In this document: piece after piece, positions 2,646 to 48,999 of the stretch | Position numbering within the stretch: the first letter of the stretch is position 1 | Layout of the letters: every line of letters begins with the position of its first letter | Origin: Carcharhinus amblyrhynchos | Lineage: Eukaryota | Direction: 5' to 3' | Length of the DNA stretch: 64,000 bases | NCBI GenBank assembly: GCA_965287045.1 | Contig: OZ336878.1 | Location: 110,422,001 to 110,486,000, forward strand | Program-made: the position numbers and the translations under genes | The notes under the pieces: model-generated | Told to the model about the DNA's origin: nothing | What the model saw: the letters and a program-made list of their open reading frames with translations, nothing else | The model's database searches: none

Positions 2646-2689
2646 GTAAGTAATCTGCACCCGGGCTCTCTCATTTGTCTATGAATAAA

Positions 2690-3130: not shown

Positions 3131-3625
3131 TGAAGCCCCTCATACCTAGAACCGTTCTCGTAAATCTTTTTCGCAATGTCTTCAATCCATTCAAATCATT
3201 TTTGGGATGCCGGAACAGCGTGTGGGGAGAGATTGGGTCAGTTCGGATCACAGAAGAGTTTAGATGGAGCTTAGACAAAGGTAGGGCGATCTCATAAATA
3301 CCGATAATATTCTAGCAGGACTTGACAGGGTAGATGCAGGAAGGGATATTCCCGATGTGGGGTGTCCAGAACCATGGGTCACAGCCTAAGGACACAGAGT
3401 AAACATTTTAGGTCTGAGATGAGGAGGAAGTTCTTCAATCAGAGAGTGGTGAGCCCGTGGACTTCGCTGGCACAGAAAGCACAGATATAACTCTTGAGGC
3501 TAAAAGTAGAGGAGGGGCGGGAATAGGGTACTGAGTTGGATGATCAGCAATTAATATAATGAATGATAGGAAAGGCTGGAAGGGTTGAATTTAGTACTCC
3601 TGCCCCTATTTTATATGTTCCTATG
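3131..3625. mobile_element. CR1 LINE 3' fragment with inverted 5' piece
   Basis: About 3131-3245 is minus-strand CR1 (KRFTRxxxGMRG); about 3250-3625 is plus-strand CR1 3' end; same structure at about 24583-25098. Confidence 0.7.
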
Positions 3626-4137
3626 TCTGTAAAGTGCGATGGCCAAAATGTTATTTTACACAGGGTTTACATAACTTCTGTGCCCCATTAATAAATGCTG
3701 TCTATTTCATTAACAGCCGCCTCCTCCCCATTCTGCCACCTTCAATGACTTATGCACATACACATCGGGGTGGCTCTGTTCCTACAGAGTAGGACCCTTC
3801 ATTTTTCTCTTCTCCCTTCGTGTTTGTTCTACCAGAACGAATCACTTCACAATTCTCTGCGTTAAATTAAATCTCCCATTTGACCCCCGATTCCAGCAAA
3901 CTGTCCATATGCCATTTCGAACTCCGCCACTATCCTCATCGCCCTTCACAATGCTTTCAAATTTTTAATGCTCCACAATTTTAGAAAATGGTGCCCTGAG
4001 AATCAAGGTCATTTATCTATGCAACGTCACAGGTTTCTTATTCCTTGTCGCTCTTTGGCGATTGTGCAAAGACGGAGCTACCACTCCGCCTCGCATATAA
4101 AGCTCGGAGCAACAATGTAGCGTGGCGCGACTATTGC

Positions 4138-4180
4138 ATGTTTACCGGAGTTACCGACTCCAGAGTTACAGTCTACCAAG
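4138..4180 (+). pseudogene. Truncated relic of the V-exon 5' end with dead acceptor (AG to CG)
   Basis: atgtttaccggagttaccgactccagagttacagtc matches atgtttacag|gagttactgactctggagttacagtc at the V exon start (27326 onward). Confidence 0.7.
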
Positions 4181-4811
4181 CAAGGATAGAGAATGATAAG
4201 AATTGTTGACCCTGTTTCCCTCTTTACGATTATGTGGACATTTTAATTTGTCTTTATATGCACAAGAAGAGTCTGGCTCAAAAAAAAGGACAGGTAACCA
4301 CTAAGACTTAATATTTTCGACTCCCTGGCTGGAATGTATACCTTGAGTGTGCTTGAACCGTGCTGAAAAAGTGCCCGATTTTCCTACAATTTCGAATTCT
4401 AATTTATCACCAGTTTTTTATTTACATACGCGCCTCATTTGTAACTTAGGCTCCCAGCTAGTGTAAGGTGGCATTTGCTTTAAAGCGTAATATTCACGCT
4501 TCTGACCTGCTTTCGGGAACACTGTGGAGCCAATGAAATATTTGCAAGTAGAGGCTTCAGTTGTTCGGCAGTAGCTGCCGCCAGCGCCAGTTGAAACGTA
4601 TTGTAGTCAATTCCCATTAAATGAAGGGCAGCTTCAGCCTCGTTGCTCCTCTTTATTTGTGGTTTTGGCTGAGGGGTAGAAAGAAAAGTCTCAGAAAGCA
4701 GACCCGAAGGTAGATTGAACATCAGAAATAAAGCCGGAAAATATCACTCGGAATTCAGGCGGTACTCAATGTACATTCAGGTCGGGCAATGGCTGGGGAG
4801 AAACAGGGAGA

Positions 4812-4945
4812 CCGGGGGAGAGATTCTCCGGCCTCCAAGCAGTGTGATTCTGGCCGGCGGGTGGTGGAGCGTTGTTTACCAGCGGATGAAAAATATCCCA
4901 TTGACCATGCAGCAAGAAACCAGCAGGAGAATCCCGCCAAAGAAT
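4812..4945. mobile_element. Short MITE-like element with imperfect terminal inverted repeats
   Basis: gggggagattctcc ... ggagaatcccgcc; the paralog at about 26281-26830 carries a SINE insertion. Confidence 0.45.
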
Positions 4946-4984
4946 GGAGCGGCCAGGACCTTGTAGCCTTAAGTGTTAATTTTA

Positions 4985-5272
4985 CTTATTAATTTCAAAG
5001 AAGTCTTACATTAACACTGCAATGAAGTTACTGTGGAAAGCCCTCAGTCGCCACACTCCGACGCCTGTTCGGGTACACTGACGGAGAATTTAGCACGGCC
5101 AATGCACCCTAACCAGCACATCTTTCAGATTGTAGGAGGAAACCGGAGCACCCGGAGGAAACCCACGCAGACACGGGGACAAGGTGCAGAATCCGCACAG
5201 ACAGTGACCTAAGCCGGGAATCGAACCCGGGTCCCTAGCACTGTGAGGCAGCAGCTAACCACTGCGTCACCA
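4985..5272 (-). mobile_element. SINE with HE1-like head and alternative tail (family B)
   Basis: Reverse complement of HE1-type head plus tail gtgtggcgact..gggcttt.cacagtaacttcattgcagtgttaatgtaag. Confidence 0.8.
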
Positions 5273-5456
5273 TGTCATAAATCAATGACCCTTCTTCAGA
5301 AAACTGAAGCGTTAAAATGACCCGTTGCGCGACTGAGCTTCTTGTTGCTGTCAGCCCATTGCTGATATCCATTTCAGAGCCCAGTGTTTCTGTAACTCAA
5401 AACCAACAATGTGGAGTGGCCTGACTGTTGATGAGGGTATAAATTTATATTTACAG

Positions 5457-5810
5457 GAGTTACTGACTCTGGAGTTACAGTCAAGCAAACACCGAACTCT
5501 GTTAGTGTTAAAGAAGGCGACGCCATCCATCTGTATTGTAGCTTCAGCGAGAATGCGACCGATTCAAGAAACAGAGCTATTGGTTCAGTCACTTGGTATA
5601 AAGATTTCCGAACCTGTGAAGTCCGCAACAACTGCAGAGAATATATCGGACGTGTTCAGAATTCTGATGTATCTTCCTTCCGCGAATTCAGAAACGCATC
5701 CATATCGATAACCAATGTGACCCTGAACGACACAGGGAAGTATTACTGTGAGGTGGAGCTTGTGATCGGCGTAAAGGGGACGGGAGAAGGAACAGATGTC
5801 ACAGTAAATC
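5457..5810 (+). CDS. NCR3: NKp30/NCR3-like gene A, single VJ-type IgV domain exon
   Basis: ttacag| ... C|gtgagt, 354 nt, phase 1/1, open. VKQTP..VKEGDAIHLYC..RAIGSVTWYK..EVRN..YIGRV..ASISITNVTLNDTGKYYCEVE..GTGEGTDVTV; AIGSVTW, EVRN and GTGxGT motifs match human NKp30. Confidence 0.9.
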
Positions 5811-7792
5811 GTGAGTTTGTGTTGCACCTGTAGCCTCACATTCCTTACAAATTGACACGTAAATGGGAGCTAAGGATAATTAATCCACCCCCAGATTGAA
5901 AGTCCCCCATGCTGGGTCTTGCCCACACAAATTGAATGCTGACGGGATCGGATGCAACCCTCAGGGTTTCACTCTATCCGGGTTTACTATGTTTCTACAA
6001 TAGTGGAGAAGAATTCTGGACCAGGTATAAAGCACAGTCACAACACCATGCAATGGTTTCAGCCCCCTGTGTCTGTGCGTGCTTGTTGTACAAGCTCACC
6101 TCTAAAGTAACACAATGTGCCCCAATCCCTAGCACTTTTCCGAAACCGTATCATATTGTACTTTGAACGCTCGATCCTTAATTAATTCACTTTTAAAATT
6201 CAGAACTAGCTGCCTCCAACACACTCTGAACCAGTGGATTCCAGATCCTAACCACTCAGTGCATGAAATGAATGCTTTATTTCCCTCATGCCCTTGTTGG
6301 CAGATTACCTGAAGTCCATCTCATCTCCTTATCGACTCTATCATAATAGGGAACAGTTTAACTCTAACTACTCTGTCCAGACCCTCGTGCATTTATTGCC
6401 CATCCCATTTTTTTTATTGAATTCAAATTCCACCACTTGCCATGTTGGGATTCGAACCCTGGTCCCCAGAACATTAATTGAATTTCAGGATTAATAGTCA
6501 CCTAGATAGGCATAAGTATTAAAGCTATAAATTCATGTTGCATTCGGCAAAAACACTCAGCTGCTGTTACATAAACACGAACATAGCAAAATAGGAGCAG
6601 TAATAGTTTATCGCTGGATTGTGGATCCAACTTCACATCCCGCCTGCCTACCATAACCCCGATTCCCTTGTTAACCACGACCACATTACAGTGGAATGGG
6701 TGGAAGTGCACAAACTTCATTTCTAGAATAATCCTAACGTAAAAAAGTGACAGAAAAGTAAACTTGGTTGGATATCCTTTCTGCATTATTTACTGTCACT
6801 TGACGACAATACTTGCCACTAGGGAATCATCATTCCAAGAATTTGAGCAAGACAAGTCAGAATAGAAAGGAGGATTCCAGTTAGGCGAGGATTCACCAGA
6901 CCATTCTCTTTCTATATGTCCGATATCAAGATACGGTATTGGCGAAATAGGCAAACAAATTATTGGAACACACTTTCCCCTCCACCAGCAGAAATTAAAA
7001 CAAGGCAGGAACATAGATTGTCATTTGTTGTCGCAACGAAACTGAAGACATTCCAGCCATTTTTATAGTTGGGACATTCATTGTGTACAGTTGGGTGCTG
7101 AGTCAGAACTCGAGATATCCCCAGGGTTGGCAAAATCCAGCAATAAATATTCAGGCTCCAGCTACTGGAAAATAAGTAATTTATGTGTACGCCAAACAAA
7201 TTCGAGAAAGTGGTGAGGGGGGGGGGGGGGCCGGGGGGGCGAGAGGGGCGGTGGAGGGGTACTGGAAAAGAAATAATTTATTTGTATGCCAAACAAATTC
7301 AAGAAAGAGGTGGGGAGGGGGTGCGAGAGGGGTAGTGGAGGGGTGGGGTAGTGCGGGCGCGGGGAGAGAGAGAGTTGTGCAGAACATTGTACAACAGCTC
7401 ATTTCACCATCCCCCTAACACTCCACTAAACGATCCGCGAGGAAATCTTGTGTTCACCGAACTGGCACGTTCTATCGGCTTTATCTGCTCACCATCTCTC
7501 TGCACCAGCGCTCTTGTCTCTCACCCTCAGTTAGTTTGCTTTCAACTAAAATGTACGACCAGCAACGGCCATCACCCAAACACAAATAGGGATGGTGGCT
7601 GACACATTATTTTGACTTTTCTGCTCATTTGCTCGGTGATCTGTGCACCGAGGTTTGAAATTCATCTTGCGGTTTCTCAACTGAAGCCCAGAATACCTGC
7701 ACCACCTCCACCCCCCTCCTCCTCCCCACTTCCCATCAAAAACACAGATGGGAAGAAAAAACATTTTTTTTGTTGCTGTTTTCTCTCTAAAG

Positions 7793-7930
7793 ATCATGTT
7801 GATTCTGAAGTAACAACACCTCCAAGTCAATGGAACACTTATCTGCTTATTTTCTCAGTGTTGGCTTTTGTGGTACTTGCTGTCATCCTGACTAAACTAA
7901 TTTATATTCTGCAATGCTGTAGACCACCAG
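7793..7930 (+). CDS. NCR3: Gene A stalk/transmembrane exon (HHVDSEVTTPPSQWNTYLLIFSVLAFVVLAVILTKLIYILQCCRPP-G)
   Basis: ttctctctaaag| acceptor, CAG|gtaatt donor, 138 nt, phase 1/1, in frame with V exon, hydrophobic span. Confidence 0.85.
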
Positions 7931-8129
7931 GTAATTATTCTGAATTCAGCCTATTTTACAACAAGGCGTGAATGACTATATGACTGAAGAATAGCATTGC
8001 TGATCTATGGCTTACATTGTTATACACCTACAATGTCTCTGAAATAATTAGCATGATTAATAATTACAGTAATACCAGCATTTCCATGAATATTCTTATT
8101 TTCCAAAGGGAGTTTTTTTAAAGTTAACA

Positions 8130-8370
8130 GCTAATTTATTAGCCACAAGTAAGGCTCCCATTAACACTGCAATAAAGTTACTGCGAAATTCCCCTAGTCG
8201 TCACAGCCCGGTTCATGTTCGGGTCAATGCACTTAACCAGCACGTCTTTCAGAATGTGGGAGGAAACCCGCAGGGAGACTCCACACAGTCACCCAAGCTG
8301 GGAATCGAACTTGGGTCCCTGGCGCGGTGAAGCAGCGGTGCTAACCACTGTGCTACCATGCCGCCCATGC
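8130..8370 (-). mobile_element. SINE family B
   Basis: Same head and tail motifs as 4985-5272. Confidence 0.75.
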
Positions 8371-8779
8371 GTTAAATTTAGAAAATTATTTATAACCTGA
8401 CATAACTTGAAGCTGCAAATATCATGGCTCGTGTCATAGTTGTATATTAATTATATAAGATAAACTGGACAGTCAGCCACTCGGCTCAACCAATCCATGC
8501 TGCTCCTTATGCTCCATTCGAACCTCCTCCTAAATTTTTTAAAAATCTAAATATATGATTATAACCATTCGTATTCGCTTCCCTCATTTGTTTGCCTGCA
8601 TTACCCTTACGGATGTACTTTGCTTTAATATCCTGTGATATTCTAACCATCATTAAAAACGATGGACAACAATTTTGTGTCAAGTGTGAAAAACAGCGTC
8701 GTGCCTGATGCTATGAACTCCCTCCCGACATCCTTTCAATAAATAACTTAATTGGGTGAGTTGTTTTTTTCTGAAACAT

Positions 8780-9750
8780 GCCATGTGCACACAGATACAT
8801 ACACGTGTACATATATGCACACACAACCAGAGACACACACACAGACACACATATAATCATACACGCACATATACACAATGGTGACACGCACAGATGCATA
8901 CTAACCAGCACACAGAAGTACACACAGACACGACACACAATAGACACATGCAGGCACATTCGTATAGCTACATAAACACACAGGCACACATGGACACAGG
9001 CACAATCACACACTTCGGAACACATACTGATGCAGACACTGGCAGACATACATAGATATCTACAGACCCACACACAGCAATACATAAAGACATGCACACA
9101 ACACACACAGACACCTATATGGACACATGTATACACACACACAGACATAGACGCACATGCAAACACATTATGTGCACACGCACATATGCACACATATAAA
9201 CGCACACATGCAAACACAAACAGACAAACACAGAAATACATACTGACACATGCACACAACACGCACACATAGACACATACATGTATACACGCACACAATC
9301 ACACATTTATGCACACACTTACATGCAGGTGTAGATGCAATCACACACATACAGACATAGACGTGCACACATATATACAGACCCACACACTGAAATATAT
9401 ACAGACACGCACACACATGCACAGATACATATATATATACATGTGTACATACAGAGAGACAGACATACAGAGAATCACTCACTTTTGCACATCCATTGAC
9501 AACTGGACACATACAGACACTGACAGACACATACTGATACATACAGATCCACAAACTTAAATACATTCAGAGACGTACAAACAACACATAGACACACACA
9601 TGCATACACGCACTCACACACACACACAAACACTCACTTATGCAGACATACATACAATCACACACATATAGACACGAAGAGATATACAAATACATAGAGA
9701 CCCACACACTGAAATACATACAGACACAGAAATACATACAAAGACACATA
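8780..9750. repeat. Long degenerate CA/CATA/CAGA simple repeat
   Basis: Low-complexity acacac tract near the duplication endpoint. Confidence 0.9.
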
Positions 9751-10143
9751 AATGAAAGAATAAGGAAATTCTTGCACAGCGCAAGATATAACACTCCATC
9801 TCCGAAAACCAGCCACTCTGAAATCTATAGGTTTATAATACACAGCCTTACATTCACTGAACTCTCGTTTCCCCGTGGCTTTATCTACTGGCCATCTTTA
9901 GCCCGTGTCTTTGTGCTCAGTTGACACTTTTTGAACTGAAACTTACGCCTAACTAAAGCGTGCGACAGCGCAGGCTAGCACGCAAAACATTTGTTTCCTT
10001 TATCTGCTCGTCATCTTCGTGCTGTGGCACTCGGCACCGAAGCTGGCGGAAGGTTTCTCAAATAAAGCGTAGAGTTAACATCAAAAGCAGAGTGGAGGAA
10101 AGAAAAAACTGTTGTTTCTTTTTTGTTTGTTTTCTCTCTGTAG

Positions 10144-10611
10144 GTCGCTTTAATTCGGAAGGGACATCGCTTGCAAATCAAGGGAACGTTTATCGGCTCA
10201 TAGCGTCAGCGTTGGTGCTAGTATTGCTGGCATTCATCTTTCGGACGGCTCGGTGGCACAGTGGTTAACACGGCTGCCTTACAGCTCCAGCGACCGGGGT
10301 TCGTATTCCAGTCTTGGGCGACCGTCTGTAGAGTTTGCACGTTCTCCCCGTATCTGCGTGGGTTTCCTCCGGGTGCGCCGGTTTCCTCCCAGACTCCAAA
10401 GACGTGTGGATTACATGGATTGGCCATGCTAAATTGACCCTTAGTATCAACGGGATTAAGCATGGTAAATACTTGGGATTATGGGTATAGAGCCTGGGTG
10501 GGATTGTTGTTAGTGCAGGGTCGATGGGCTGAATGGCCTTCTTCTGCACTGTAGGGTTCAATAAATTCTATTCTATTTTCAAATTTCCTCCTCACTGCTG
10601 CAGACCTCTCG
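10144..10611 (+). pseudogene. Divergent paralogous TM exon (RFNSEGTSLANQGNVYRLIASALVLVLLAFIF..HCCRPL) interrupted by a SINE; donor mutated
   Basis: tttctctctgtag| acceptor; upstream intron resembles 7470-7790; after the SINE, tgctgcagacctctcg|ctaattat matches tgctgtagaccaccag|gtaattat. Confidence 0.8.
10243..10576 (+). mobile_element. Full-length HE1-type SINE inserted in the pseudo-TM exon
   Basis: Complete head-to-tail SINE motifs. Confidence 0.9.
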
Positions 10612-11244
10612 CTAATTATACTAAATTCAACTTGATTACTAAGTAGAGTAAGTTACTGCAGACCTATATCTTCCCTGCAGTGTGTTGAATACCGTATATG
10701 TAAAAGGACACCGCGATTAGTTTAACTCACGATGCAATGTATCTAGAGCGACACTAAATCAAAATGATGTTAATCACAATAATGACAGCGTTGGCTACGA
10801 TTATTTTGTTTAACAAATGGAACTGAACAAGGCCATTGTTAGAACTTTGCATATTTTGAAATCAGAAATACCATGGTTTGTACCATAGATGTGTTTTGAT
10901 TACCGCAGAATCAATTAATGGAAAGACCGATATAGTCACATCTCCTGATTCGGTTCCCAGCTTGGGTCACTGCCTTAGCAGAGTATGCATGTTCTCCCAT
11001 TGTCTGTGTAGATTTGCTTCAGGTTTCCTTTCACACTGCGGGTTAGGTGGATTGGCCATGTTAAATGCGCAGGGTAACTATTATAGGGCGGGGGAGTGAC
11101 CCTCGGTAGAGTGCTCTTTCACAGGGTCGCTGCAGACTTGATGGGGAATGATTGGGATTCTGTGCACTGTGTTCGGCGAAAGGGGCGTGAAGAAAGCAAA
11201 GAGACTGGGCAATCGGCCACCTGCCATGCTGTGTCCTATGATTT

Positions 11245-11655
11245 AGAAAAATGAGGGGAGATCTCATTGAGACGTATAAGATGATGAATGGGATGGATAG
11301 GATAGAGGTGGAGAGACTCTTCCCGCTCAGAAAAGACAGTAGGACTAGGGGGCACAGCCTCAAGATAAAGGGGAGGCGGTTTAGAACGGAGTTGAGGAGG
11401 AACTTCTTCACTCAAAGGGTGGTGAATCTCTGGAATTCTCTGCCCGTTGAAGTGGTGGAGGCTGCCTCGCTAAATATTTTTAAGAAGCGGGTTGATGGGT
11501 TCTTGATAAGAGAGGGGATTAATGGTTATGGGGAGAGGGCGGGAAAGTGGAACTGAGCCACAACAGATCAGCCATGATCTTATTGAATGGCGGGGCAGGC
11601 TCGAAGGGCTAGATGGCCTACTCCTGCTCCTATTTCTTATGTTCTTATGTTCTAT
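11245..11655 (+). mobile_element. Young CR1/HER1 LINE 3' end
   Basis: ORF 11251-11556 RGDLIETYK..TRGHSLKI..FFTQRVVNLWNSLP; nearly identical to 366-785. Confidence 0.92.
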
Positions 11656-12834
11656 TCTGTGACAAAGCCAAGTACTGTCCCCACATGCTCCACGCCATGA
11701 GAGAGAACGTGACCAAATTCTCTCGCAAAATAATTTTCATAGAAATCCATAATCGCTTCAATTGACCTGACGTGGATAGATTTGGGAAGCTTAGGGAGAA
11801 AGCAGCCAATGTTGCCGAGTCCAGGAAGAAACGTGAATCTTATGACGAGATATAGCTTGCGTTTACGTAGCTCTTTCCACCGTGTAAAACAACCTAATGT
11901 AAATCATTATTAAGCAACAGTTGACACTACAGTGAGATATTCCAGCAGCTTATCCAAGAGCTGGGATGAACTGATAGACTCTCAGGACAGTCTTAAAGGA
12001 GAAATGAGAGGACGTGAGGCGGAAACGGAAAGAAAAGAGAAAGGGAAATTGTGTTATAACTAACTATGTTTCAGTTAGTTACAAGAATAAAAAAAATGAC
12101 TGCTACCCACCAATGTGCGCCACAGTTGTCACATATTGAATGATTGATTTAATGTCTTCGCTCCATTGAATTACAGTCTGGTCATCAAAATTGAAGAAGG
12201 AACGCTTACCTAATTGTGCATCCGAGTAAACCTCAGAATGTTTCACTACTTTATAGCATTTTTGATCAATTTGCCCCAGGCTTTGCGGATCACAGTGTTT
12301 TTGTCACATCATATATAAGGTCTCAGGCAATGGTGCGCTGAGAAACTAAATGGCCGGAATTCTCCCATCCCGTCCGCCACTAGAATTTTAGCGGGCGCGT
12401 TGCGGAGCATGTGAAACGCCACTGACGGTCGGGTGGGAATTTTTGGCTTTAAGACCAGCGCGGTCGGAAAATTCCCAGTTCAAAATGAAAGTCTGTGTTA
12501 AGGAAAGAGCACATTTTCTCCTAAAGTTTTCACTTTTATTAATCACTGAAATACGCCATTTTGGACTATTACTGTTCTTCCAGCTTGAAAATATGCAATC
12601 AATTTAAAATGCGTATAGGTCAAAGAATTAAACAAGGAATCCAGGCTGTAAATGCGGTATGTGATAAAACTCAATGAAAACCATCGGTTTTGATTTGCAC
12701 TGTGGTTAATGTGGCTATTTTTGAGGAAGAAAGATGCAAAGCTAAGGTTCACGTTAACAAAATCAGCATGGTGAATATAATTGGAATAGAGGAAAACAGA
12801 AGTAAGATAGAGCGACTCGTTTAACATTTGGGAT

Positions 12835-13070
12835 GTGTTTTTTTTATTCATGTTTGGGACATGGATGTCGCTGCCTGGCCAGCATTTATTGCCCATCCAT
12901 AGTTGCCCTTGAGAAGGTGGTGGGGAGCTGCCGTCTTGAATCGCTGCAGTCCACGTGTTGTGGGTTGACCTGCAATGCCGTTAGCGTTAGGGGGGAAATT
13001 CCAGGATTCTTACCCAGCGACTGCGAATGAACGGCAATATATTTATAACTGAGAATAGTGAGAGGTTTGG
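12835..13070 (-). mobile_element. 3' end of a second LINE family (gggcaataaatgctggcc tail)
   Basis: Reverse complement of the tail seen at 20270-20470. Confidence 0.6.
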
Positions 13071-14149
13071 AGAGCCTAGTGTCAACATGGCTGCAGCCGG
13101 AAATGGAGATAGAAAGAGAAATCACCAAGGCACACAGCTGGCACTGTGAATCAACATTTGTTAACAAATGGACGTCTTCTTCAAATGCTTTCTAAGGAAT
13201 CCGAAAAAGTTAGGATCGGGGGTGAGGTGCGAGGCTCACACGCAACACTAGTATTATGCAAGAGTTTCAAATTGAATTTTTGTATTGATGCTGAATAGAA
13301 CTGTAGCCTGCTTGATATTAAACTTAATTCTATGGACATTTCCCGTGATACATTTAACAACGTCAAATTCTAACACATATGTGGCAATATATTAATGCCA
13401 GGCCGTAATGTCATAAGGCGTAGGTGGAGAGGTCGGTCATTCGGCCCATCGAGTCTGCTCCGCCATTCAGTGAGACCAGGGCTAATCTGATAAGATATTT
13501 CTCGACTCCACTTTCTCGCTGTGTCCCTTACTGATTAAAAATCCGTCCACCTCAGGCTTTAACATACTTAACGACCCAACCTCTGCAAACTTTTGCGGTA
13601 AAGAATTCCACAGATTCACTATCGAAACGAGGACTGCAGTTCGTGATTTACCCATGAAAAAGCCTTGTATCACATTTATTAGTTTTTGTCGAGAAATGTT
13701 CAGAGTTCATTCGTTCGTTGAAATAACCTGCCAGCCCTCACATATATTTCTTACCTGATTATAACGAGAACTTTAGTCTTTATAGTCTTTAGTCTATCGC
13801 ATGGGAGGTTGCCTGCATGGTGTGTTAATTTGTTCTCGTATTATATGAGCGATTTTCTGCTCTAAATATATCCTTTATTGCAGATTACCCCGCTGTATGT
13901 ATCTGATATAGGGACTCGGACTTTTTCCATTGTCGCCAACTTGCCACGCTTTGTGAAAGGAATTATTGACAATTGCCGTGTTCACGCTGCCAAGGTCGAG
14001 ATTCATTTGGGAGTTTGACCTTTGTAACGTGGGCGCTAGCTGACCCAAGTTCTCGAAGCTGTCCGGGCATTGTGTTAATCCTTATTTATCAGTGGGTCTT
14101 CCTGGTAACCGCTTGCAAACCCAAACTGTCATTTGCTGTCCCAAAGCTG

Positions 14150-14395
14150 TCTGTGTGGAGTTTGTACATTCTCCCTGTGTCTGCGTGGGTTTCCTCTGGG
14201 GGCTCTGGTTTCCTCTCACTGTCCAAAGATGTGCGGGTTAGGGTGAATTGGCCATGTTAAATTGCCCCTTAGTGTCAGGGGGGCTAGCTAGGGTAATTGC
14301 ATGGGGTAATGGGGATAGGGCGAGGGGGGAGGATTATGTTCCGTGCAGACTCAAGGGGCCGAATGGCCTCCTTCTGCACTGTAGGAATTCTATGA
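14150..14395 (+). mobile_element. 5'-truncated HE1-type SINE
   Basis: ctgtgtggagtttgtacattctcc ... gggccgaatggcctccttctgcactgtagg. Confidence 0.8.
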
Positions 14396-14668
14396 ATGCA
14401 ACATGCAACAGTGAACAGTATAATCATAATTAAATACCAACATGCAGTCAAAAGAAAAATGTTTCCACAACGAATGCTAGGTTCGCCCTACTGCTCCGTG
14501 TGATTTCCATTTCGGGTTTTCAATCAAAAGATGCTCAGTACAAGTTAAGAAATCAACGATTGACTCGAAGTTAAAAGCAATTGAAGATAGTAGTGCGCTA
14601 TTGTAGACGTTTACAAGCTGAAGCAAGTGACTTAACATAATCACAATATTTGTTCAAAAAAATTGCAG

Positions 14669-14905
14669 GGCGGAGTCATGTTGGAAAACTATGATTTATG
14701 AGAAGCTGAACCTCAGTCAAACAGCCACCCTCCTGATGCGATTGTGTGCAAGACAACGAGGTCATGCGTACAAAGCAAAAACACATAGCGAGAGGAGAGG
14801 TGTCACTCCCGGACAGCAACGGAGAATCTCAATTGCAGACATTTTATAAATTGTAACCGGATCTAGAGGCGGCTATTAGCATCAACAGAAATCGCTTTGA
14901 TGCTT
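14669..14905 (+). pseudogene. Decayed paralog of the ITIM cytoplasmic exon (TMIYEKLNLS..SLPDSNGES), frameshifted and internally deleted
   Basis: ttgcag| acceptor; aligns by eye with 41712-41867 and then jumps to 41992-42060. Confidence 0.75.
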
Positions 14906-15979
14906 AGCACCCATTTTGATAAGGATTGGGTTGGTTTATTTGTTCTGCCATCCACAGTTTAAAAGTTTAAAGTTCGGATTGGACATTAATAAATTGCTAC
15001 TTGAAAGTTCTGCATATTTAAACATAATAAGTATTCTTGCCCTTGATTGCGGAGGTGTGCTGAAAGTAATTTTTGTATCAGTAATTTGAGTGATTGATTC
15101 AGCGCTGCAATGATTCCTTCTCACCAAGCTCAAAGCGCCGTACATTGGGGATGGACACTGATTTATTGTTGTCCTTTTCTGAACCAAACCTGTTACATTT
15201 CGCTGTATTTGCGTCCCCCAATCGGCAGTCTTCTAATTTCATGCATTTTTTCGAAGTGCGATTTTGTTAACCAAACTTTAAAATCAATTATTTGTCATGC
15301 GTTCTCGAGATAAGGGCATAACAAGAGATGTGGTTCAGACGCCCCCTGCAGTCCCCTTCATCATCGAATACGATCACTCCGGATGTTTTGTCAATTTCCT
15401 GTCATACCTACATCGTTTAATTCCATTAGGGCAGTCTTGTCCAACATTTGCGCCTTGAAAAGGGCCACATTTTTATTTATCCCCCTTCAAGGCGCGGAGC
15501 CAATGAACAAATTTCGGGATGAAAAGGCTCCGTCCAACTTTGAGCGGATTTCTTTTTTAAATTGCGGTGTTGAGAAAAAGGAACAATTGCTGAACAAAAA
15601 TAAAGCAACATTAAACAGTAAGCTGTTAAGGAGTGTATTCAATAAAAATTGCCGGAGTGTGAGAGGGTTAGAGTGTGTGTGCCAGGCTCTATCAGTGTAA
15701 GGGTGCGCTCAGTAATCCACTGGGAGTAAATGCCTGTATGTGTTGGTGTGTGCTGGGAAACTGAGTGCGAATAAGGCGGACACAGTCACTCTCAATCCTG
15801 CACACCCGCAATTGCTCAGGCACAGACAGACAGAGACACACAAAGTCAATTTCTCTCACTTCCTCACCACACCCATCACCCCGCCCTTACCGCCCGCCCC
15901 CAACACCCCCACCCTCCCCACCCAAGACCATCTGTTCCGCCTGTCGCACAGACAATTCCTCGGTAAATTGTTCAATCTT

Positions 15980-16850
15980 ACTTCGACACACACTCAGTCA
16001 CTCATGCACGCTCTCATTCACTCAATCACACACACACACAGACACGCATCCCACATGAACACATGCACCAAAACACTCTTATTCTCTCACTCCCACGTTC
16101 ACACTCTCTCATTTCCGAACCCACACATCCACACTCAGTCCCTCACTCCCATGCACATAGTCTTTCACTGCCTCATCCACACATGCACACTCACTCCCTC
16201 AGTCCCATGCACATACACACTCTCAATCCCTCACCTATTTACACCCCCATGTTCCCTCACTCCCATGCACACACTCCTTCTCACTCCCACGTCGGTACTC
16301 GCTCTCACTCCCAAACCTTCATATCTATACTCACGTCCTCTCTCCCGCACCCACATATCCCCACTCACTCCCATTCACACACTCATTACCTCGTTCCTGT
16401 TCAGAAGCGCTCACTCTCTCACTCTGACAAACATATATAAATAGATAGACGGATAGATAGATAGATACGCACACAGCCTCTTTCGTCCCATATACATTCA
16501 TCCTCTTGCAATCCACCCCCACACACGCCCACTCTCTTGTACTACCATACATGCACAATTCTCTCCCCACACACACACACTCAATCTCTCTTCCATATAC
16601 ACATTTATGCGTTCTCACTCCCCCCACACATCCACTTTCTGTCTCTCACGCACAAATTCGCTCTCTGCCCACACACTATGTCCCACAAACACACATACAA
16701 TCAATCTTTCATCTCCGCCCCCACCGACGCATAAACATTCTAACACCGACTCACGCCTCACTCTCTCAGTGCCACCCACACAAAAAACACTCATTCTCCT
16801 GCACTTCCAAACATAAGCATAATATCTCATACAAGACTCACACACATTGC
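15980..16850. repeat. Degenerate CA/CT-rich simple repeat
   Basis: cactca/cacaca/ctctc runs. Confidence 0.85.
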
Positions 16851-17414
16851 TACCATCTTCCTCACCCCGGCCCTCTCCCGCTGACCCACCCGAACCAACA
16901 GTCCCAGGGACTATGGCATTGCAAAGGTCACGCTGTACTTCACTTCCCAGGCATTGATCCCTCGTTCACATCCTGGCACTCAGCTCTCGACGCTCAGTTC
17001 CCCAACATTCTGCCCCTCGGCATTCTGCCCACTGTAGACGGATCCCTGACATTCTACTTTACTGCACTCTAGTCCCCGATCATTTTGCATCATTTTGGCT
17101 GAACCCGAAGTCCGCACTAATCCTGATCCTGAATCAAAGCTGGTTTCTCTTCCCCATTTGCTGCTGTAAGTTTCTTTAGTGAGACAAATGGCATGTAATT
17201 ATAGGGGAAACACATTGAAGATTCCTTCAAGTCAACTGGCATTTTGAAAACTGCCTCTAGAGGCCAAATACAGGGGTTTCCAGGACCGCATCTGGCCTGC
17301 GGATTATACGTTGGACAAGACTATCTTAGAGATCTATCTATCTTAATGACTATTATCTGCAACACATTGGGTAAGGTAATTAGTGATTCAAAACGTTAGC
17401 AGTGAAGATATTTA

Positions 17415-17695
17415 TTTTATTAGTGTCACAAATTGGCTTACATTGTCTCAGCAATGAAGTTACCGTAAAAATCCTCTAGTTACCACATTCCGGCACATGT
17501 TCAGGTACACTGAAGGAGAATTTAACTTGGCCAATACACCTAACCAGCACATGTTTCGGACTGTGAGAGGAAACACACGCAGATACAGGGAGAACGTGCA
17601 AAATCCACACAGACAGCGACCCAAACAGGGAATTAAACCCGGGTCCCTGGTACTGTGGAGCAGCAGCGCTAACTGGCACTGTGAAGCCACAGCGT
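17415..17695 (-). mobile_element. SINE family B
   Basis: tttattagtgtcacaa..ggcttacatt.. tail and HE1-like head. Confidence 0.75.
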
Positions 17696-17954
17696 CGCCC
17701 TCTGCTACCTTTACATCTCTGTCCTAAACAGCTGATCTTTCATCTTGGCTGGGTATTTCTAATTTGTGATGCTCAGGGGGAAATCTCTTCAACATTTACC
17801 CTAACAAAGCCCCTTCAGGATCGGATTAAAGGCCAGTCAGCTGAAATTCTCTCTCGCTTTATCTTTCCGAAAATACTGACTCCTCTGATGATTGGTTCTA
17901 GAGTTTCCCCTGATTATTTCAGATTTCCAGCACTCACACTGTCATGGAATAATA

Positions 17955-18255
17955 GAATCATTGAAACCTGCACTGCAGAAGGAGGTCATTCGGCCCATCG
18001 AGTCTGCACCAACCACAATCTCACCCTCTCACCACGCATTTACCCTAGCTAGTACCGTTGGCATTAATGGACAATTTAGGATGGCCAACCCACCTAACCA
18101 GCACATCTTTAGACTGGGGGAGAAAACCGGAGCAATCCCAAGCAGAAACAGGGAAAATGTACAAATGCCACACAGACAGTGAAACGAGCCTTGGAATTGA
18201 ACACGGGTCTTTGGCGTTGTGAAGCAGCCATGATAACCACTATGCCACCATCCCA
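17955..18255 (-). mobile_element. HE1-type SINE
   Basis: cactgcagaaggaggtcattcggcccatcgagtctgcacc ... Confidence 0.8.
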
Positions 18256-18444
18256 CCCCATCTGTTACTTCAGGATCTTCTATGTTTCAATGAGATCACC
18301 TCTCATTCTATTGATTAAAGTTCTAATCTATTCCAACTCTCGTCAGAGACAACTTTCGCCATAATAGTCAAGTACACCATTCTGAAGAGAAGTGGACCAA
18401 ACCTGCCAGCAGTCCTCCACGTATGGCCTCACAAAAACCCTGTA

Positions 18445-19100
18445 GTTCATAGAACATTACAGCGCAGTACAGGCCCTTCGGCCCTCGATGTTGCGCCGAC
18501 TAGTGGAACCAATCTAATGACCCTCTAACCTAAACTATTCCAATGTTATCCATATGCCTATCCACTGACCATTTGAACGCCCTTAAAGTTGGCGAGTCCA
18601 CGACTGCTGCAGGCAGGGCATTCCACGCCCTTACTACCCTCTGAGTAAAGAACCTACCTCTGACATCCGTCCTATAACTACCACCCCTTAAGTTAAAGCC
18701 ATGTCCCCTCGTGTTAGCCATCGCCATCCGAGGAAAAAGGCTCTCGCTGTCCACCCTTTCCAATCCTCTGATCATCTTGTATGCCTCAATTAGGTCACCT
18801 CGTAACCTTCTTCTTTCTAATGAAAACAACCTCAAGTCCCTCAGCCTTTCCTCATAAGACCTTCCCACCATACCAGGCAACATCCTGGTAAACCTCCTCT
18901 GCACCCTTTCCAATGCCTCCACTTCTTTCTTATAATGCGGCGACCAGAACTGTACGCAACACTCCAAGTGCGGCCGCACTAGAGTTTTGTACAGTTGTAA
19001 CATGACCTCACGGCCCCGAAGTTCAATCCCTCGGCCAATAAAAGCTAACACACCGCACACCTTCTTAACAACCTTATCAACCTGGGTGCCAACTTTCAGG
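18445..19100 (-). mobile_element. CR1 LINE 3' fragment (ORF2 C-terminus)
   Basis: ORF 18530-19060: LYKTLVRPHLE.CVQFWSP..LERVQRRFTRM..RGDLIE..TRGH..FFTQRVV.AWNALP. Confidence 0.93.
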
Positions 19101-19349
19101 GTACCACAGCAAGTCTTCCTGAGTGCTGCTCCCCAGCTCCTTTGCAGTACAGTTGAACATGTCCGTAGCTTTTCTAGCCACTTACAGTGCCTGCATGGTA
19201 AATTCCTACGTCATTTGTGTACACTAAAGCATCTGCGAAGGTTAATGCTAATCACTCTTACATTGTTTTCGAAAATCTAATTTTCTATCGTTCTTTCCAA
19301 AGGGAATAACTCGTGTTTCTCCACATTGTGCTCAACTTGTCACGTTGTT

Positions 19350-19695
19350 AGAATCCCTAGTGCAGAAGGAGGCTATTCGGCCCATCGAGTCTGCACTGCC
19401 CTCAATCCCACCCAAGCCCTATTCCTGTAACCCCACTTATTTACCTGCTAATTCCCCACGGCACTGGGGTCAATTTCGGCATGGCCAATCAACCTAACCA
19501 GCACATCTTTGGACTGTGCGAGGAAACCGGAGCACACGGAGGAAACGCACACAGACACGGGAATGGATTGTGCAGAGTGACTCCCAGCGTGATATTGAAA
19601 CTGGAACTGTGTACAGTGAGCGAAGGCCAGAATTGAACCAGGGTCCCTAATTCTGTGAGGCAGCAGAGTTAATCATTGCGTCAGCGTGCCGCCGT
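19350..19695 (-). mobile_element. HE1-type SINE
   Basis: Characteristic tail and head motifs in reverse. Confidence 0.8.
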
Positions 19696-20269
19696 TGGCT
19701 CCCTATCCATTGCCATCTAGACATCCTGACGTATTGCAACATTTGTTCCCCAATATCTACCCTGTCAGATACTTCCTCAAAAACACCAATCAATTTCCCA
19801 GACAAGATCTCATTTTCATGAAATCACAATGACCCGAAATGAATGGAATCGAAGCAAACCCTACAGCCCAGCAAAGGCCTTGGATTTAACTTCTCCGATC
19901 CTTTCTGCTGCGACAATCATTATGGGTAAGACGGAAATTTTGGCAAACTATTTCGAAGTACGTTGAATTCGGGCGGGGATTTCCGATCTCGCCGTGGGCG
20001 CGACCGGACGATTTGGCCAGTGACCTTCCGGGGTCCTTTGCCACAGGCGCAAATTCTCTTATGACCAGGAATCCCCGTCAGAGGGCCATAACGGAATTTG
20101 TGGTGGGGAGAACTTAAAAGATCTTGCCCTCCCCGCTCCCTCCTCCTGCCACTTAATCTAGTTCAGGCCCAGCTAGACAAAGGGCTTAACTACCATTGAT
20201 TTTCACATATTGAAATATTCCCGAATGACATTACTCCATAGCTTCCGGGGACATCTGTGACCGGAATAC

Positions 20270-20470
20270 TTGGAAAGTTATCACCGTTTCTTCACTGTGG
20301 CTGAGTTAAAATCCTGGGATCCCCACCCTATCGGGCGTGTCTACACCTCAGGGTCTGCAGCGGTTCAAGAAGACAGCTCACTACCACCTTCGCAAGGGCA
20401 ACTACTGATGGGCACTAATTGCTGGCCTTGCCAGCGATGTCCACATCCCATAAAATGAAGAGAATTAAAA
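20270..20470 (+). mobile_element. 3' end of second LINE family
   Basis: ctgcagcggttcaagaagacagctcactaccacctt..gatgggcactaattgctggcc..A-rich end. Confidence 0.6.
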
Positions 20471-20804
20471 AATATCTTTGTCCTACTCTGATGAATTGCC
20501 ACAGAATGGAATTATTAATTCTGCTTCTCTCCATAGATGTTGTCTGAACATTTCCAGCATTTGAACAAAATATATTTCAGAGTTCCAGCTTCTGCTGTTA
20601 TTCGTTACTGTTGTACACGCAAATAGAACAACGCTTCAAAGGTACTTTAACAACTGAAACGTATTTTGGGTCCTTGGGAAACGCTGCAAAGCTAATTTTG
20701 TTTCTGTTATTGAACTCTGATTTTAGACAATTAGTCAAATCTGACAGAGCCCCAAATATACAACCCAACAGGCAGTCAGGAACTAACGTTCATTTCTGAC
20801 ATTA

Positions 20805-21290
20805 TGTGGAGATGCAGAGTTGTACCGGGGTGGAGACAGTAAGAAGTCTGTCCCACCTTTTGGTAAGCGCTCTCCAAGGCGGCCTTCAAAACATAGGACA
20901 ACGCAGAATCACCTAACAGAAACTGATGGCCAAGTTCCACACACATGAGGACAGCCTCAACCGGGATCTTGGGTTCATGTTACAGTACCTGTAACCCCCA
21001 TCATTTGGCCTGGGCTTGCAAAATCCTACTAATCGTCCTGCCTTGAGACAAGTCGCATCTCTCTAACCTGTGTTTATCCCTTTCTCCACACGTGTTGTCT
21101 GTACCTGTAAAGACTTGATTACCTGTAAAGACTCACATTCCAACCATTGTCTTGCAACTCTGTCTCCGTCCATATATGCTGTGTTTATGAACCCACTTGT
21201 CCACTCAACTGATAAAGGGACAGCCCTCCGAAAGCTCATAATTCCAGATAAACCTGTTGGACTTTAATCCGGTGCTGTGAAACTTCTTAC
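20805..21290. mobile_element. Penelope-like element terminal fragment (short inverted piece plus + strand piece)
   Basis: Shares blocks with 35866-36930 and 55430-55545 (aaccgggatcttgggttcatg; aaacctgttggactttaa). Confidence 0.6.
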
Positions 21291-21584
21291 CTTCTGACAT
21301 TGTCATTGGCTATCCCTCAATTCGATATTGGTAGTTACTCAGAGATGTGTGTTTCCACCATGCGTCCTCATATGCCTAACTTGCTGATCTTTGGCCTCAT
21401 GGGTCAGGGTGAGTCAGGAGGCACGGAAGTGCAGCCGTTGTTTGCTTGTCCTTCCGTATCTATTCAATTGTAGACAATTGGTAACACGTACCAGACATGA
21501 ATATCAGTGCTGCCATAGGTCAAGGAAAGCTATAGATGTTTTTGTCATATTTTCTTAGTTTTGTCCATGAACATGAGTCATTTA

Positions 21585-21950
21585 GTGGGAGGTGATGGCT
21601 TTGTGTTATTATCACCAGACTATTCAGCCAGCAACTCAGCTAATGTTCTGGTGTCCAGGGTTCGAATCCCACCGTGGCAAATGGTGAAATTTGAATGCAA
21701 TAAAAATAGTATCTGGAATTAAGTATCTATCGATGAGAATGGAACTATTGTCCATTGTCAGAAATGAAACTTCTGGTTTACTAATGTCTTATAGAGACAT
21801 TAAAATCCTTACCTGGGCTGGCTTACATGTGACTCCAGAGCCACAGCAATGTTGTTGACTCTCAACTACTCTCCAAGTCTAATTACGGATGGGCAATACA
21901 TGCTGGCCAGCCAGCGACACCAATGTCCCACAAATGAATGAGAAGAAAAT
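21585..21950 (+). mobile_element. SINE family C (tRNA-like head, LINE-like gggcaataaatgctggcc tail)
   Basis: gggttcgaatccc B-box; recurs at about 26385, 29375(-), 38225, 48170(-). Confidence 0.75.
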
Positions 21951-23915
21951 GACTTGTACAAATAGTACAGGGGCCTGACCACTGTTGGCGCTGTCAGCCA
22001 GCGTTACCGTGAAATGGGAGGTCGCCATGTTGCTCACTTCATTCAAATCATGAGAGGAGATTCTATCGAGCAATTATCGCCGGCCTATTGTTAAGCAGCT
22101 CCACAATTCTGAAATCAAGTGCTCTCTGCCGCACAGAATCTTGCGTCAACTGCGCAAGCCACGCTGCATCACAAAGAAATCAACAAAGTCTTCTGAAATG
22201 TACCGAATGCTGGTACTTTGTGAAAATAAACATCTGGCTGACATAAAACCCCACCATTATTTTGGCTGATCACCTTTCAATCTCATTTGTTGAACCTGCC
22301 TTTTCTCAGGCTATCTGGGCATTATTTCTGTAGTAAATATCTTTCCTCCGTGTTGTTACGCTTTAGCATACGAACTTTTGCACATGCAATGGAATTGCGG
22401 AGCAATGCAAATGTCCGAATAGCTGAATTGTGCTGCCCGGGACTCTCTGCAAATGTCCCTTCCGCTAAGTCGCTTATTCAGTGTGAGTGACTTAGCACTG
22501 TATATCCCGATTTGTAACCTTAGAAAAGGTACGCTGTTCAATCACTGGCGTGACCACCCCAATTTAGCCGACCTTCACCAACCTGACAGCTTACCAATGA
22601 CCCTAAACCCTATGGATCCCAATGCCTCACTCCCCAATACCCCGCATCGACCGTCCCAACCTGACCGACTGCCCTCCAGACAATCTAGTGATCGGACCTT
22701 TCCACCTACCCCACCTACCACCCCCACTACTGGACACTCTCCCCCTCCCCGACCATTCCATCCTGATTTCCCCTCCCCCCCACAAGCAACCGACCTTTTC
22801 TTCCCATCCCCCGATCAGCCTTCCGACCCCTCGCCCCACTCATCCTCGGACCGAATCTCGACCTCAATTACCTAATACAGACTCACTCACCAAACGACAC
22901 ACGCAGCCAGCCGTTCGCACAGTCATCTACCCACTTACCCACTGACACAACTACTCACACACTCAATCACGCACACATTCACTCACACCATCACTCAGTC
23001 ACTCAGCCAACTGCTCACCCACCCGTTCATCCGTTCACCCACCTGTCCCCCCTTGACAGTCACCCACACACTGAATGTCTTTGAGATCTGTAACCACTTC
23101 CCTGAGTGCGGCAGTTGATGTTCCGAGAAGGGACATTGTACCCCGCCCTGCCCCCGAGTAGGTGACTGCTTTGAAATATTGCTGTTGCAGTCGCGCCAGG
23201 AAATCCCGCCTGGATGGACTGCGACCATCGCAGTCAGCGGCCATCATCCCGATCATGACCTCTGACAGAAATATGTCTACTAATGACTGATGATCCCAGG
23301 CCTAGCTCATTTCCGGTACGATAATAATAGCAACCGGAGATGACGAAGCTGATATGATGCTTACCACAAGTGTATCACTGACTAATCAAAACCCTACCCT
23401 TGAGATCAGACAGAGGTTGATTGCAGCAGTTTCACTCAGAAGGTGATGGTTCTACTTTGTAATTGATGCGGGCAGCAATATAACAATTATTCCAACCTGG
23501 ATGTCTCCATCTGCTTGTATGGCTCAATCCAGATGTCTGATTAAACTTTAACAAAGCAGGTAAGTTGGTATAAATTCCAAAGTAATTCGTCCGTCCTCTC
23601 AAGATGTAACGAAAGATTATTTTCAGAAGCCGAGGCCGTGGTTAAGTTCCACGAGGGTTACAATTGGACGTTACATTTTCTAGTGTGTTTGATAATTAAT
23701 AAGTGAGATCAGGTTCTCAATTGATTTCAAACAGGAAATCAGTTAGAATTCCTGCCAGTTAGTCTCCACTGTTACATTGCAGCGACCTCCGGCTATAACG
23801 ACAAACGCACTAAATTTAACTGCTTCATCTCTTTTGTTCCCGATGTTGAATGAATTGCTGTGAAAAAATGTTATTAATAAATACTACTCATCTATCCACA
23901 GACAACTGCGAAGCC

Positions 23916-23958
23916 ATGCTATGCAATCGAATCGTTTGGTCATTGTTGTTGCTCTCTG
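23916..23958 (+). CDS. NCR3: NKp30/NCR3-like gene B, signal peptide exon (MLCNRIVWSLLLLS-G)
   Basis: ccacag| acceptor at 23901, gccATG, G|gtaagt donor, phase 1. Confidence 0.85.
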
Positions 23959-25587
23959 GTAAGTAATCTGCACCCGGGCTCTCTCATGTGTCTATTAATA
24001 AGCATATATACACACACGCATACACACAGCATTACACATCCACACAGATACTTGTTATCGAGGTTTATATACCCATATATGCGTGTATTATATATCTACT
24101 TATATTAGAAACAAACATTTAAATATTTCACGCAGAGACATCGATACACACATCTGTAAATATATCATCTATATTATTCAGATACGTATTTCACATAGAG
24201 GTATAAATGCATATGCATAAACATATTGCACACACACACACTTCCACACGCACAGATACGCACGCACACATACTCCCACATGCATGCACACATATGTGCA
24301 CAGACATGCATGTACACAAAAGAACACGCACACATACCAACATATATATATACACACACACACATACTCAGGCACACACGGACTCATCCATACACTCAAA
24401 CACATACACACTCACACGGGCACATACACTCAAACGCACACAACACACGGGTACATACATCAACACTCTCTCACACACACAGGCATACACACAAACACAC
24501 ACACACAAACACACACACACACACACATGCACACAGACAGATATAGACACACACGCACACGCATAGGAATTACTGGCAAATAACTGAAGCTCCTCATCCC
24601 TGGAACCATTCTCGTGAATCTTTTTCGCAATTTGTTCAATCCATCCAAATCAGTTTTGGGATGCGGGAACAGCGTGTGGGGACATAATGGGTCGGTTCGG
24701 ATCATTAGATGGAGCTTAGACAAATATGGGGTGATCTCATAAATACCGATAATTTCTAACAAGACTAGACAGGGTAAATGCATTAAGGGATATTCCCGAT
24801 AGTAGGATGTCCAGAACCAGGAGTCACAGCCTAAGGATACACGGTTAACAGTTTAAGTTTGCGATGAGGAGAAAGTTCTTCATTCAGAGAGTGGTGAGCC
24901 TGTGGACTTCGCTAGCACAGAAAGCAGTTGACTGCAAAACATCGTATGTTTTCAAGAAGGAAGTAGATATAGCTCTTGAGCTAAATGTAGAGGAGAGGCG
25001 GGAATAGGGTACTGAGTTGGATGATCATCAATTAATATAATGAAAGGCTGGAAGGGCTGTATTTCATACTCCTGCCCCTATTTTATATGTTCCTATGTTT
25101 GTAAAGTGTGATGGCCAAAATATTATTTTATACAGGGTCGACATAACCTCTGTGCCCCATTAATAAATGCTGTATACTTCATTAACAGCCGCCTCCTCCC
25201 CATTCCGCCACCTTCAACGATTTATGCACGTACAATCGGGGTGACTCTTTATTTTTCTCTTATCTCTTCGTGTTTTTTCTACCAAAACGAATCACTTCAC
25301 AGCTCTCTGCATTAAATCAAATCCCCCATTTGACCCCCGGTTCCAGCAAACTGTCCATATGCCATTTCGAACTCCTCCACTATCCTCATCGCCCTTCACA
25401 ATGCCGTCAAAATTTTTATGCTTCACAACTTTAGAAAATTGTGCCCTGTGAATCAAGGTCATTGATACATGTAATATCATAGGTTTCTTATTCCTTGTCG
25501 CTCTTTGGCGATTGTGCAAAGGCGGAGTTGCCACCCCTCCTCGCGTATAAAGCTCGGAGCAACAATGTAGCGTGGCGCGACTATTGC

Positions 25588-25630
25588 ATGTTTACCGGAG
25601 TTACCGACTCTAGAGTTACAGTCTACCAAG
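25588..25630 (+). pseudogene. Second copy of the truncated V-exon 5' relic
   Basis: atgtttaccggagttaccgactctagagttacagtc. Confidence 0.7.
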
Positions 25631-26384
25631 CAAGGATAGAGAATGATAAGAATTGTTGACCCTGTTTCCCTCTTTACGATTACATGGACATTTTAATTTG
25701 CCTTTACATGCACAAGAGGAGTCTGGCTAAAAAAAAAGACAGGTAACCACTAAGATTTAATATTTTCGACTCACTGGATAGAGTGAAAACCTGCAGTGTG
25801 CTTGACCGCTTGCTGAAAAAGTGCCCGATTTTCCTACAATTTGGATTTTAATTTATCACCAGTTTTTTTTATATACACGCCTAGTTGGTAACTTAGCTCC
25901 CCCCCCACCCCGCCCACCCCTAGCTAGTGTAAGATAGCATTTGCACTAAAGCGTAATATTCACGCTTCTGACCTGCTTTCGGGAACACAGTGGAGCCAAT
26001 GAAATATTTGCAAGCAAAGACTTCCATTGTTCTGCAGCAGTTGCCGCCAGCGCCAGATAAAATGTATTGTAGTCAATTCCCGTTAAATGAAGGGCAGCTT
26101 CAGCCTCGTTGCTCCTCTTCATTTGTGGTTTAGGCTGAGGGGTAGAAAGAAAAGTCTCAGAAAGCAGACTCTAAGATAGATTGCACATCAGAAATAAAGC
26201 TGGAAAATATCATTCGGAATTCAGGCAGTACTCAGTGTACACTCAGGGCGAGCAAAGGTTGGCGAGAAACAGGGAGACACGGCGAGAGATTCTCCGCTCT
26301 CCAAGCCGTGTGATTCCGGCCGGCGGGTGGTGGCGCGTTGTTTGCCAGCGGCGTGATTCACTGGTGCCACCGCTATCAACGGGG

Positions 26385-26757: not shown

Positions 26758-26879
26758 GTCCCATTGACGTCACCCCATGCTAGCAAGAAACCAGCAGGAG
26801 AATCCCGACAGTGTGAATGGCCAAAGAATTGCGGCCAGGATCTTTTAATCTTTAATATTAATTTTACTCATTAATCTCA

Positions 26880-41690: not shown

Positions 41691-41711
41691 ATTCTTTTGC
41701 GCTAATTTAAG

Positions 41712-48914: not shown

Positions 48915-48999
48915 GTAAGTGATTTTCTTTAGTACTACCTATTGTGCTGTCCGGCAATTTTGCGTAACCAGAGTCTAGAAGTATATGGGAATACGAATT

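Follow-up and report, generated by a model that had tools for sequence, protein, structure and literature searches.

A decayed inhibitory-type tail exon, probably that of an older paralog, behind an NCR3/NKp30-like gene of Carcharhinus amblyrhynchos

According to passages of a study on KIR, the switch of these receptors to activation needs both a lysine in the transmembrane (TM) segment and a stop codon in the first ITIM (PMC2213150), and NCRs are described, in the part of another source that concerns them, as signalling via a charged TM residue (PMC6514059). The association of a homogenised ligand-binding half with a divergent signalling half is found in Siglec-11/16 (PMC5701461), and has been described as 'merohomogenization' in KLRC, Ly49 and PIR (PMC3210942). 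NCR3 genes are already known in sharks, as stated in sections of PMC12227049 and PMC10751288; the passages searched in PMC11372145 contain nothing on NCR3, and an ITIM/ITSM consensus is supplied by a part of PMC11599192. Our literature searches turned up no paper that deals with the present locus or with inhibitory tails in shark NCR3. There is reportedly a dedicated nurse shark NCR3 paper, that of Kinlein et al. (2021), which may describe such tails.

The window, i.e. the whole stretch of 64,000 nucleotides that was analysed, is rich in SINE and LINE copies and we take it, from what is known of such repeats and from the protein matches, to be elasmobranch-type DNA. It contains three genes, A, B and C, each with one VJ-type Ig V exon. 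These V exons are 354 nt long and in phase 1, and their translations carry a GxGT motif (J-like end GxGTxV); exons were placed by tblastn and by their splice sites. The V-set family PF07686 was found in the V domains of all three genes. For the V domain of gene B, the best match with a solved structure was human NCR3/NKp30 (E = 7.6e-9, residues 5-116, nearly full length), and the best single-domain relatives among 1.84 billion representatives were P0002 (66%), a Heterodontus protein named 'NCR3-like', and P0006 (57%), an unnamed Chiloscyllium protein. By their predicted V domains, genes A, B and C are thus NCR3/NKp30-like. A PD-1 or CD28-family identity, suggested by the ITIM and ITSM tail, was rejected on the same V-domain matches.

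The exon layout known from the cartilaginous-fish NCR3/NKp30 relatives QTT61904.1, XP_067865303.1 and XP_043533738.1 is the same, with a V exon, a stalk/TM exon, a small exon and a last exon with three tyrosines, and the V domains of A and B are 55-66% identical to those of the tailed Heterodontus XP_067865303.1 and Chiloscyllium XP_043533738.1. The elasmobranch branch of this old, NK-receptor-like family includes long tails with tyrosine motifs, unlike human NKp30. Other searches gave less: Pfam had no family for the gene B tail nor for the relic frame described below, the gene B tail had no match in longer proteins among 107 candidates, P0002 used as a protein-search query returned only itself, and an alignment search gave four matches, two of them new.

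In gene B, the following exons were placed:
23916-23958, forward strand: leader exon
27336-27689, forward strand: V exon
30936-31068, forward strand: TM exon, 5 nt shorter than the first TM exon of gene A (TM1), ends in phase 2
37857-37888, forward strand: small cytoplasmic exon, 32 nt
41712-41966, forward strand: last exon, open, 84 aa, with LVYAKL, VVYAPL and TVYGRV

The last exon of gene B has matches in the tails of P0002 (E = 4e-10) and P0006 (E = 1e-8). As an inhibitory reference gene B is not clean, since the deletion of 5 nt in the TM exon shifts the frame: with canonical splicing the product has 177 aa and stops before the ITIM tail. Only an AAG acceptor located 7 nt inside the small exon would lead, by predicted splicing, to a product of 269 aa with all three motifs. 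Because the last exon is intact, the TM lesion would be recent, bypassed, allelic, or an error of the sequence. At 40400-40643, the window also carries a tandem array of a 52-bp SINE-derived unit in 4.7 copies.

When the gene B segment 41690-42100 was compared by blastn with the whole window, we observed a single significant non-self match, between 14661-14829 and 41704-41867 (111/171 identities, 65%; E = 1.3e-12), the other five matches having E values of at least 0.5. Without gaps the identity is 68% (JC 0.41). The match picks up again at gene B 41992, where 23 of 30 ungapped positions are identical and the next best place gives 16/30, and the two pieces beat all of 300 dinucleotide-type shuffles, with scores of 95 (shuffle maximum 38) and 48 (shuffle maximum 39). 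The parallel with the last exon of gene B, which had been noticed earlier behind gene A, is thus significant, and the jump that had been described, to the gene B 3' UTR from 41992 with 124 bp (41868-41991) absent, proved exact in its coordinates. The relic has the following parts:
14669-14829, forward strand: 5' part of the relic last exon, CAG acceptor kept
14685-14688, forward strand: run with an extra A, a +1 frameshift ahead of the first tyrosine
14699-14701, forward strand: stop codon in phase 0
14786-14788, forward strand: TAG in the shifted frame
14827-14829, forward strand: TCT at the deletion junction, where gene B 41868-41991 has no counterpart
14830-14993, forward strand: 3' UTR of the relic, matching gene B 41992-42055
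14988-14993, forward strand: candidate poly(A) signal AATAAA, within the relic 3' UTR

In phase 0 the relic reads GGVMLENYDL* and in phase 1 xRSHVGKL*, so that both frames stop within 10 codons, as had been proposed; that proposal left out phase 2, whose frame runs open through 59 codons of the window allele and contains TMIYEKL. This window allele lacks 4 nt after position 14716, and all four sequencing runs compared (X4, X5, X6 and X9) have those bases, so the 4-nt deletion reads as a recent indel polymorphism. With the four extra bases, the shifted frame is open for 40 codons, and its homology with the P0002 tail continues as far as the TAG at 14786-14788. By its sequence, the relic is a decayed inhibitory-type tail exon, and its motif has Met at -2. 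Methionine at this position is not a canonical ITIM residue. The lesions are not slips of the assembly, since three runs of the probable source sample contain all (share 1.00) of 136 words sampled over 14400-15700; an assembly error in that interval was rejected on this ground.

The open phase 2 of both alleles, its homology with the P0002 tail in the allele with the four extra bases and the TMIYEKLNLS segment, which is unchanged in X6, would suit an exon still alive in the shifted frame, giving a weak inhibitory receptor with a short tail and one tyrosine motif. We consider this extremely improbable: the relic is entered from the exons before it in phase 0, or in phase 1 when splicing leaves out the small exon, a splice to the AG inside the small exon runs into a stop, and the acceptor that lies 7 nt inside the relic would be a GAG. 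GAG is a rare acceptor. The Met at -2 and the presence of the frameshifting 4-nt allele in the window's own sample weigh in the same direction.

The gap corresponds exactly to gene B 41868-41991, and it spans the second ITIM-like motif VVYAPL, the ITSM-like motif TVYGRV and the stop codon. Its length of 124 bp is measured against gene B only, the tails of Heterodontus and Chiloscyllium being ~6 residues longer there. Among the tailed homologues of sharks and rays, all eight that were aligned have sequence across the missing stretch and seven have the distal YxxV/I motif, P0058 ending early. Since these homologues keep the segment, it was lost by the relic and not gained by gene B, and the deletion of the two distal motifs, already proposed, is upheld. 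The CCT said to flank the gap is indeed found in gene B at 41865-41867 and 41989-41991; the relic has TCT at 14827-14829, with two of the three bases kept, and 3.9% of random 124-bp cuts in 41000-43000 give a microhomology of at least 3 bp. The microhomology at the junction is therefore near chance and only suggestive, with breakpoints blurred by the ~35% divergence between relic and gene B.

Reads were compared over 14400-15700 for four of 20 listed runs. X4 has 1 differing letter and comes from the same study as the probable source, so it is not independent; X9 has 13 differing letters in 744 at a depth of ~2, X5 has 39 in ~1086 and X6 has 65 in 1301. The contigs of all four runs (0 to 5% diverged) bridge the deletion junction without insertion or joint, and none of the four has an indel at the extra A. 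Both lesions, common to the four runs, are thus older than the 5% split. In X6, the changes are not fewer in the exon (14/181) than elsewhere (51/1120; Fisher p 0.09, a single comparison with small counts, in which the changes listed up to 14920 are taken as complete). The relic exon shows no sign of constraint in X6. It has the features of a pseudo-exon that decays as a neutral relic: a +1 frameshift, a stop and a deletion common to the runs, with no purifying selection seen in X6.

The exon is preceded by gene A, whose parts are:
823-8610, forward strand: B-homologous block (promoter, leader, V, TM and introns), matching gene B 22579-31800
2603-2645, forward strand: leader exon, 43 nt, phase 1, GT donor, 93% identical to the gene B leader
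5457-5810, forward strand: VJ-type Ig V exon, V-set PF07686, 96.6% identical to the gene B V exon
7793-7930, forward strand: stalk/TM exon TM1, in frame, ends in phase 1, GT donor intact, 89% identical to the gene B TM exon
10144-10611, forward strand: second, decayed stalk/TM exon TM2, acceptor intact, donor GT now CT
12619-12656, forward strand: small cytoplasmic exon of the putative older paralog, 38 nt, AG and GT intact, open, from phase 1 to phase 0

Over nine pieces of the block, genes A and B have 86-97% ungapped identity (JC 0.035-0.15; introns 0.10-0.15), and this homology ends ~680 bp after TM1. Behind the block, TM2, the small exon and the relic follow in gene order, at JC distances of 0.36-0.48 from gene B. 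TM2 is split by a SINE-like repeat at ~10245-10575; it is 65-66% identical to TM1 and to the gene B TM exon (JC 0.45-0.48; score 73 against a shuffle maximum of 42) and is also found by tblastn with P0002 (E = 6e-5). The exon at 12619-12656 matches the small-exon region of gene B (E = 1.3e-6, 71%, JC 0.36-0.37; score 69 against a shuffle maximum of 43). Beyond 8610, those matches of the colinear chain that consist of repeats were removed as SINE/LINE copies; repeat insertions fill the introns of gene B after the TM exon, so that turnover accounts in part for the lack of intron homology in that region.

A first-pass annotation of this DNA had taken the relic as evidence of a lost inhibitory tail, the usual route to activating partners in paired receptor families; in this version, gene A would have been duplicated whole from B, and its own ITIM tail would have decayed as it became the activating partner. 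The relic does lie behind A in the right order and phase, with a stop before the first tyrosine that resembles the short-tail stop in the membrane-proximal ITIM of KIR (passages of PMC2213150), and the V domains of A and B are nearly identical, as in paired receptors, with differences at 8 of 117 residues. However, a tail lost after the A/B duplication should match gene B as well as the introns do, and the relic (JC 0.41) is about four times further from gene B than these neutral introns. In addition, the small exon and TM2, of the same age as the relic, sit between it and the block. TM1 has acquired no new charge either: its lysine is also found in P0002 and P0006, and the activating TM class is a separate one, present in rays too. 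Largely refuted by the two age classes, the loss of gene A's own tail is very unlikely, and the activating route that was tied to it is not supported either, the only TM lysine of gene A being a late one as in these two proteins.

The distances argue instead that the relic belongs to the 3' half of an older paralog, named X here, and that gene A is a chimera. We consider it probable that the 3' pieces are the remains of an old inhibitory-type paralog, and that the resulting gene A is likely non-signalling, with a broken tail. A young B-type block with leader, V and TM would have been set in front of the 3' half of X by unequal crossover or non-homologous recombination, by partial duplication into X, or by conversion of an old gene with two TM exons, all of which fit. 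With a plain unequal crossover, another X-like copy would be expected upstream; in each run the relic exon was covered, at a likeness of at least 80%, by only one contig path, which weighs a little against crossover, even if contigs show presence and not absence. The tail of X would have been killed by the +1 frameshift before the first tyrosine, by the stop and by the deletion of the two distal motifs.

A search of 7900-22500 for remains of the X leader or V exon was negative. A conceptual translation of TM2, small exon and relic has 46/95 identities with P0002 and 34/90 with gene B, the value between gene B and P0002 being 44/90. NQGN is common to TM2 and P0002, and QWNT to TM1, gene B and P0006. 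In a tree of the 3' halves, the supports among X, B, P0002 and P0006 are 57-72, which leaves their order without resolution, and X has no firm placement because the protein searches found no close relative of gene A or gene B. The origin of gene A is ordinary birth-and-death evolution in a fast-changing receptor cluster. Unlike the cartilaginous-fish NCR3 relatives, this gene has two TM exons, halves of different age and a tail cut before the first tyrosine.

The homologies with their two ages, the lesions, the occurrence of these lesions in other samples and organisms, and the reading frames are observed; we infer the chimeric origin of gene A, and likewise its splicing, its expression and a decoy role. 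The likeliest transcript would join leader, V, TM1, small exon and relic into a product of 201 aa: TM1 ends in phase 1, the small exon converts it to phase 0, and the relic then meets the stop ten codons into it, before the tyrosine. Alternative predicted products have 186 aa (small exon skipped), 191 aa (read-through of TM1) and 173 aa (V to TM2), and AATAAA signals are found at 14988, 8171 and 10560. None of the four splice models (173-201 aa) contains a tyrosine motif of the last exon.

In the read-through model, gene A would pass the TM1 donor into intron 3, or the gene would be silent, and the relic would be in no transcript, the 3' half of X being dead DNA. The 191-aa frame with its AATAAA at 8171, the destroyed TM2 and a relic without constraint in X6 agree with this. 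The small exon, however, keeps its AG, its GT and an open frame at JC ~0.36 from B, the relic keeps its CAG acceptor with an AATAAA at 14988, and the GT donor of TM1 is intact, so that we hold an untranscribed relic to be unlikely.

TM1 has no mid-membrane charge; its sole charge is a lysine at position 17 of a 21-residue window, and the tailed inhibitory homologues P0002 and P0006 also have a late lysine, at position 18. In gene A and its relic, no tyrosine motif is in frame with a TM exon, as an inhibitory receptor would require. As for an activating partner, the short ITIM-less tail and the near-identical ectodomain are found and the adaptor-binding TM charge is not. The best reading of these predicted products is that gene A would encode a decoy that competes, without signalling, for the ligand bound by the B-type V domain, or be inert, and would not be activating. 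SIRP-gamma and other Ig decoys are tail-less and charge-less. Like them, gene A has a V-type ectodomain as in the inhibitory paralog, a predicted short tail and no adaptor-binding residue; the SIRP-gamma family is unrelated to it.

As in short-tailed activating KIR, a stop at or before the membrane-proximal ITIM strands ITIM sequence in the 3' UTR; unlike in KIR, where passages of PMC2213150 place the gain of the TM lysine on the same branch, gene A has no new lysine and its tail comes from an older paralog. As far as the sources cited above describe Siglec-11/16, KLRC, Ly49 and PIR, gene A is like them in having a binding half near-identical to that of its neighbour and an old, divergent signalling half. 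It differs from them in that the TM exon is part of what is shared with the neighbour, the old TM exon stays behind as a relic and the partner half would be non-signalling instead of activating. The presence of a decayed ITIM exon downstream of a gene does not imply that this tail was once its own, nor that the gene is becoming activating.

A further arrangement would have gene A alternate between TM1, for a tail-less decoy, and TM2, for an activating receptor, and gene B control its ITIM tail via the acceptor 7 nt inside its small exon. The predicted V-TM2 product of 173 aa has a TM arginine near the outer end as in NKp30; its stop and its AATAAA (10560) come from the inserted SINE. We regard this arrangement as highly improbable; if true, a decoy and an activating receptor, each with the V domain of the inhibitory gene B, would come from one chimeric gene.

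The V exons of A and B (5457-5810 and 27336-27689) are 96.6% identical as compared with ~90% for the introns, and their 12 base differences lead to 8 residue changes; this pattern may reflect later exon conversion or selection that acts on the binding face. Intron 1 carries, in A (4138-4182) as in B (25588-25632), a 45-bp stretch that repeats the V exon start with 82-88% identity and lacks the AG acceptor.

The third gene is arranged as follows:
48869-51059, forward strand: gene C, with leader 48869-48914, V exon 49420-49773 and TM exon from 50857

Its TM lysine is at position 6, and its V domain groups closest to nurse shark NCR3 QTT61904.1 (P0052), with a support of 93. In a survey of TM charges in 16 proteins, a lysine at positions 4-7 was found in gene C, in nurse shark NCR3 and in the stingray proteins P0023 and P0039; for stingray P0037 the window scan chose another stretch, yet the same GVKL is present. 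From these sequences, the activating-type lysine TM appears as a separate old class, common to rays. No tail or small-exon homologue was found behind gene C. A run of 142 N lies in its intron between V and TM (~50530-50680).

By their V domains, the stingray lysine-TM proteins P0023, P0037 and P0039 group with the long-tailed stingray proteins P0038 and P0053 (support 94) and not with gene C, which suggests that V and TM halves were swapped repeatedly in the NCR3-like family. The locus is a modest, concrete case of birth, death and half-gene shuffling in a shark NCR3 cluster. Should A and B both prove tail-less, an inhibitory NCR3 signal, apparently kept by the homologues of horn and bamboo sharks, may have been lost in this species. 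For annotation, it is relevant that the small exon, TM2 and the frameshift of gene B would escape automated models.

Two observations stand beside these. In the Heterodontus P0002 tail, the first two tyrosines are lost and the distal motif is kept, a parallel erosion in an X-like gene. Finally, the window carries at 58245-60178 a long LINE reverse-transcriptase fragment in two frames, which is presumably CR1/L2-like.
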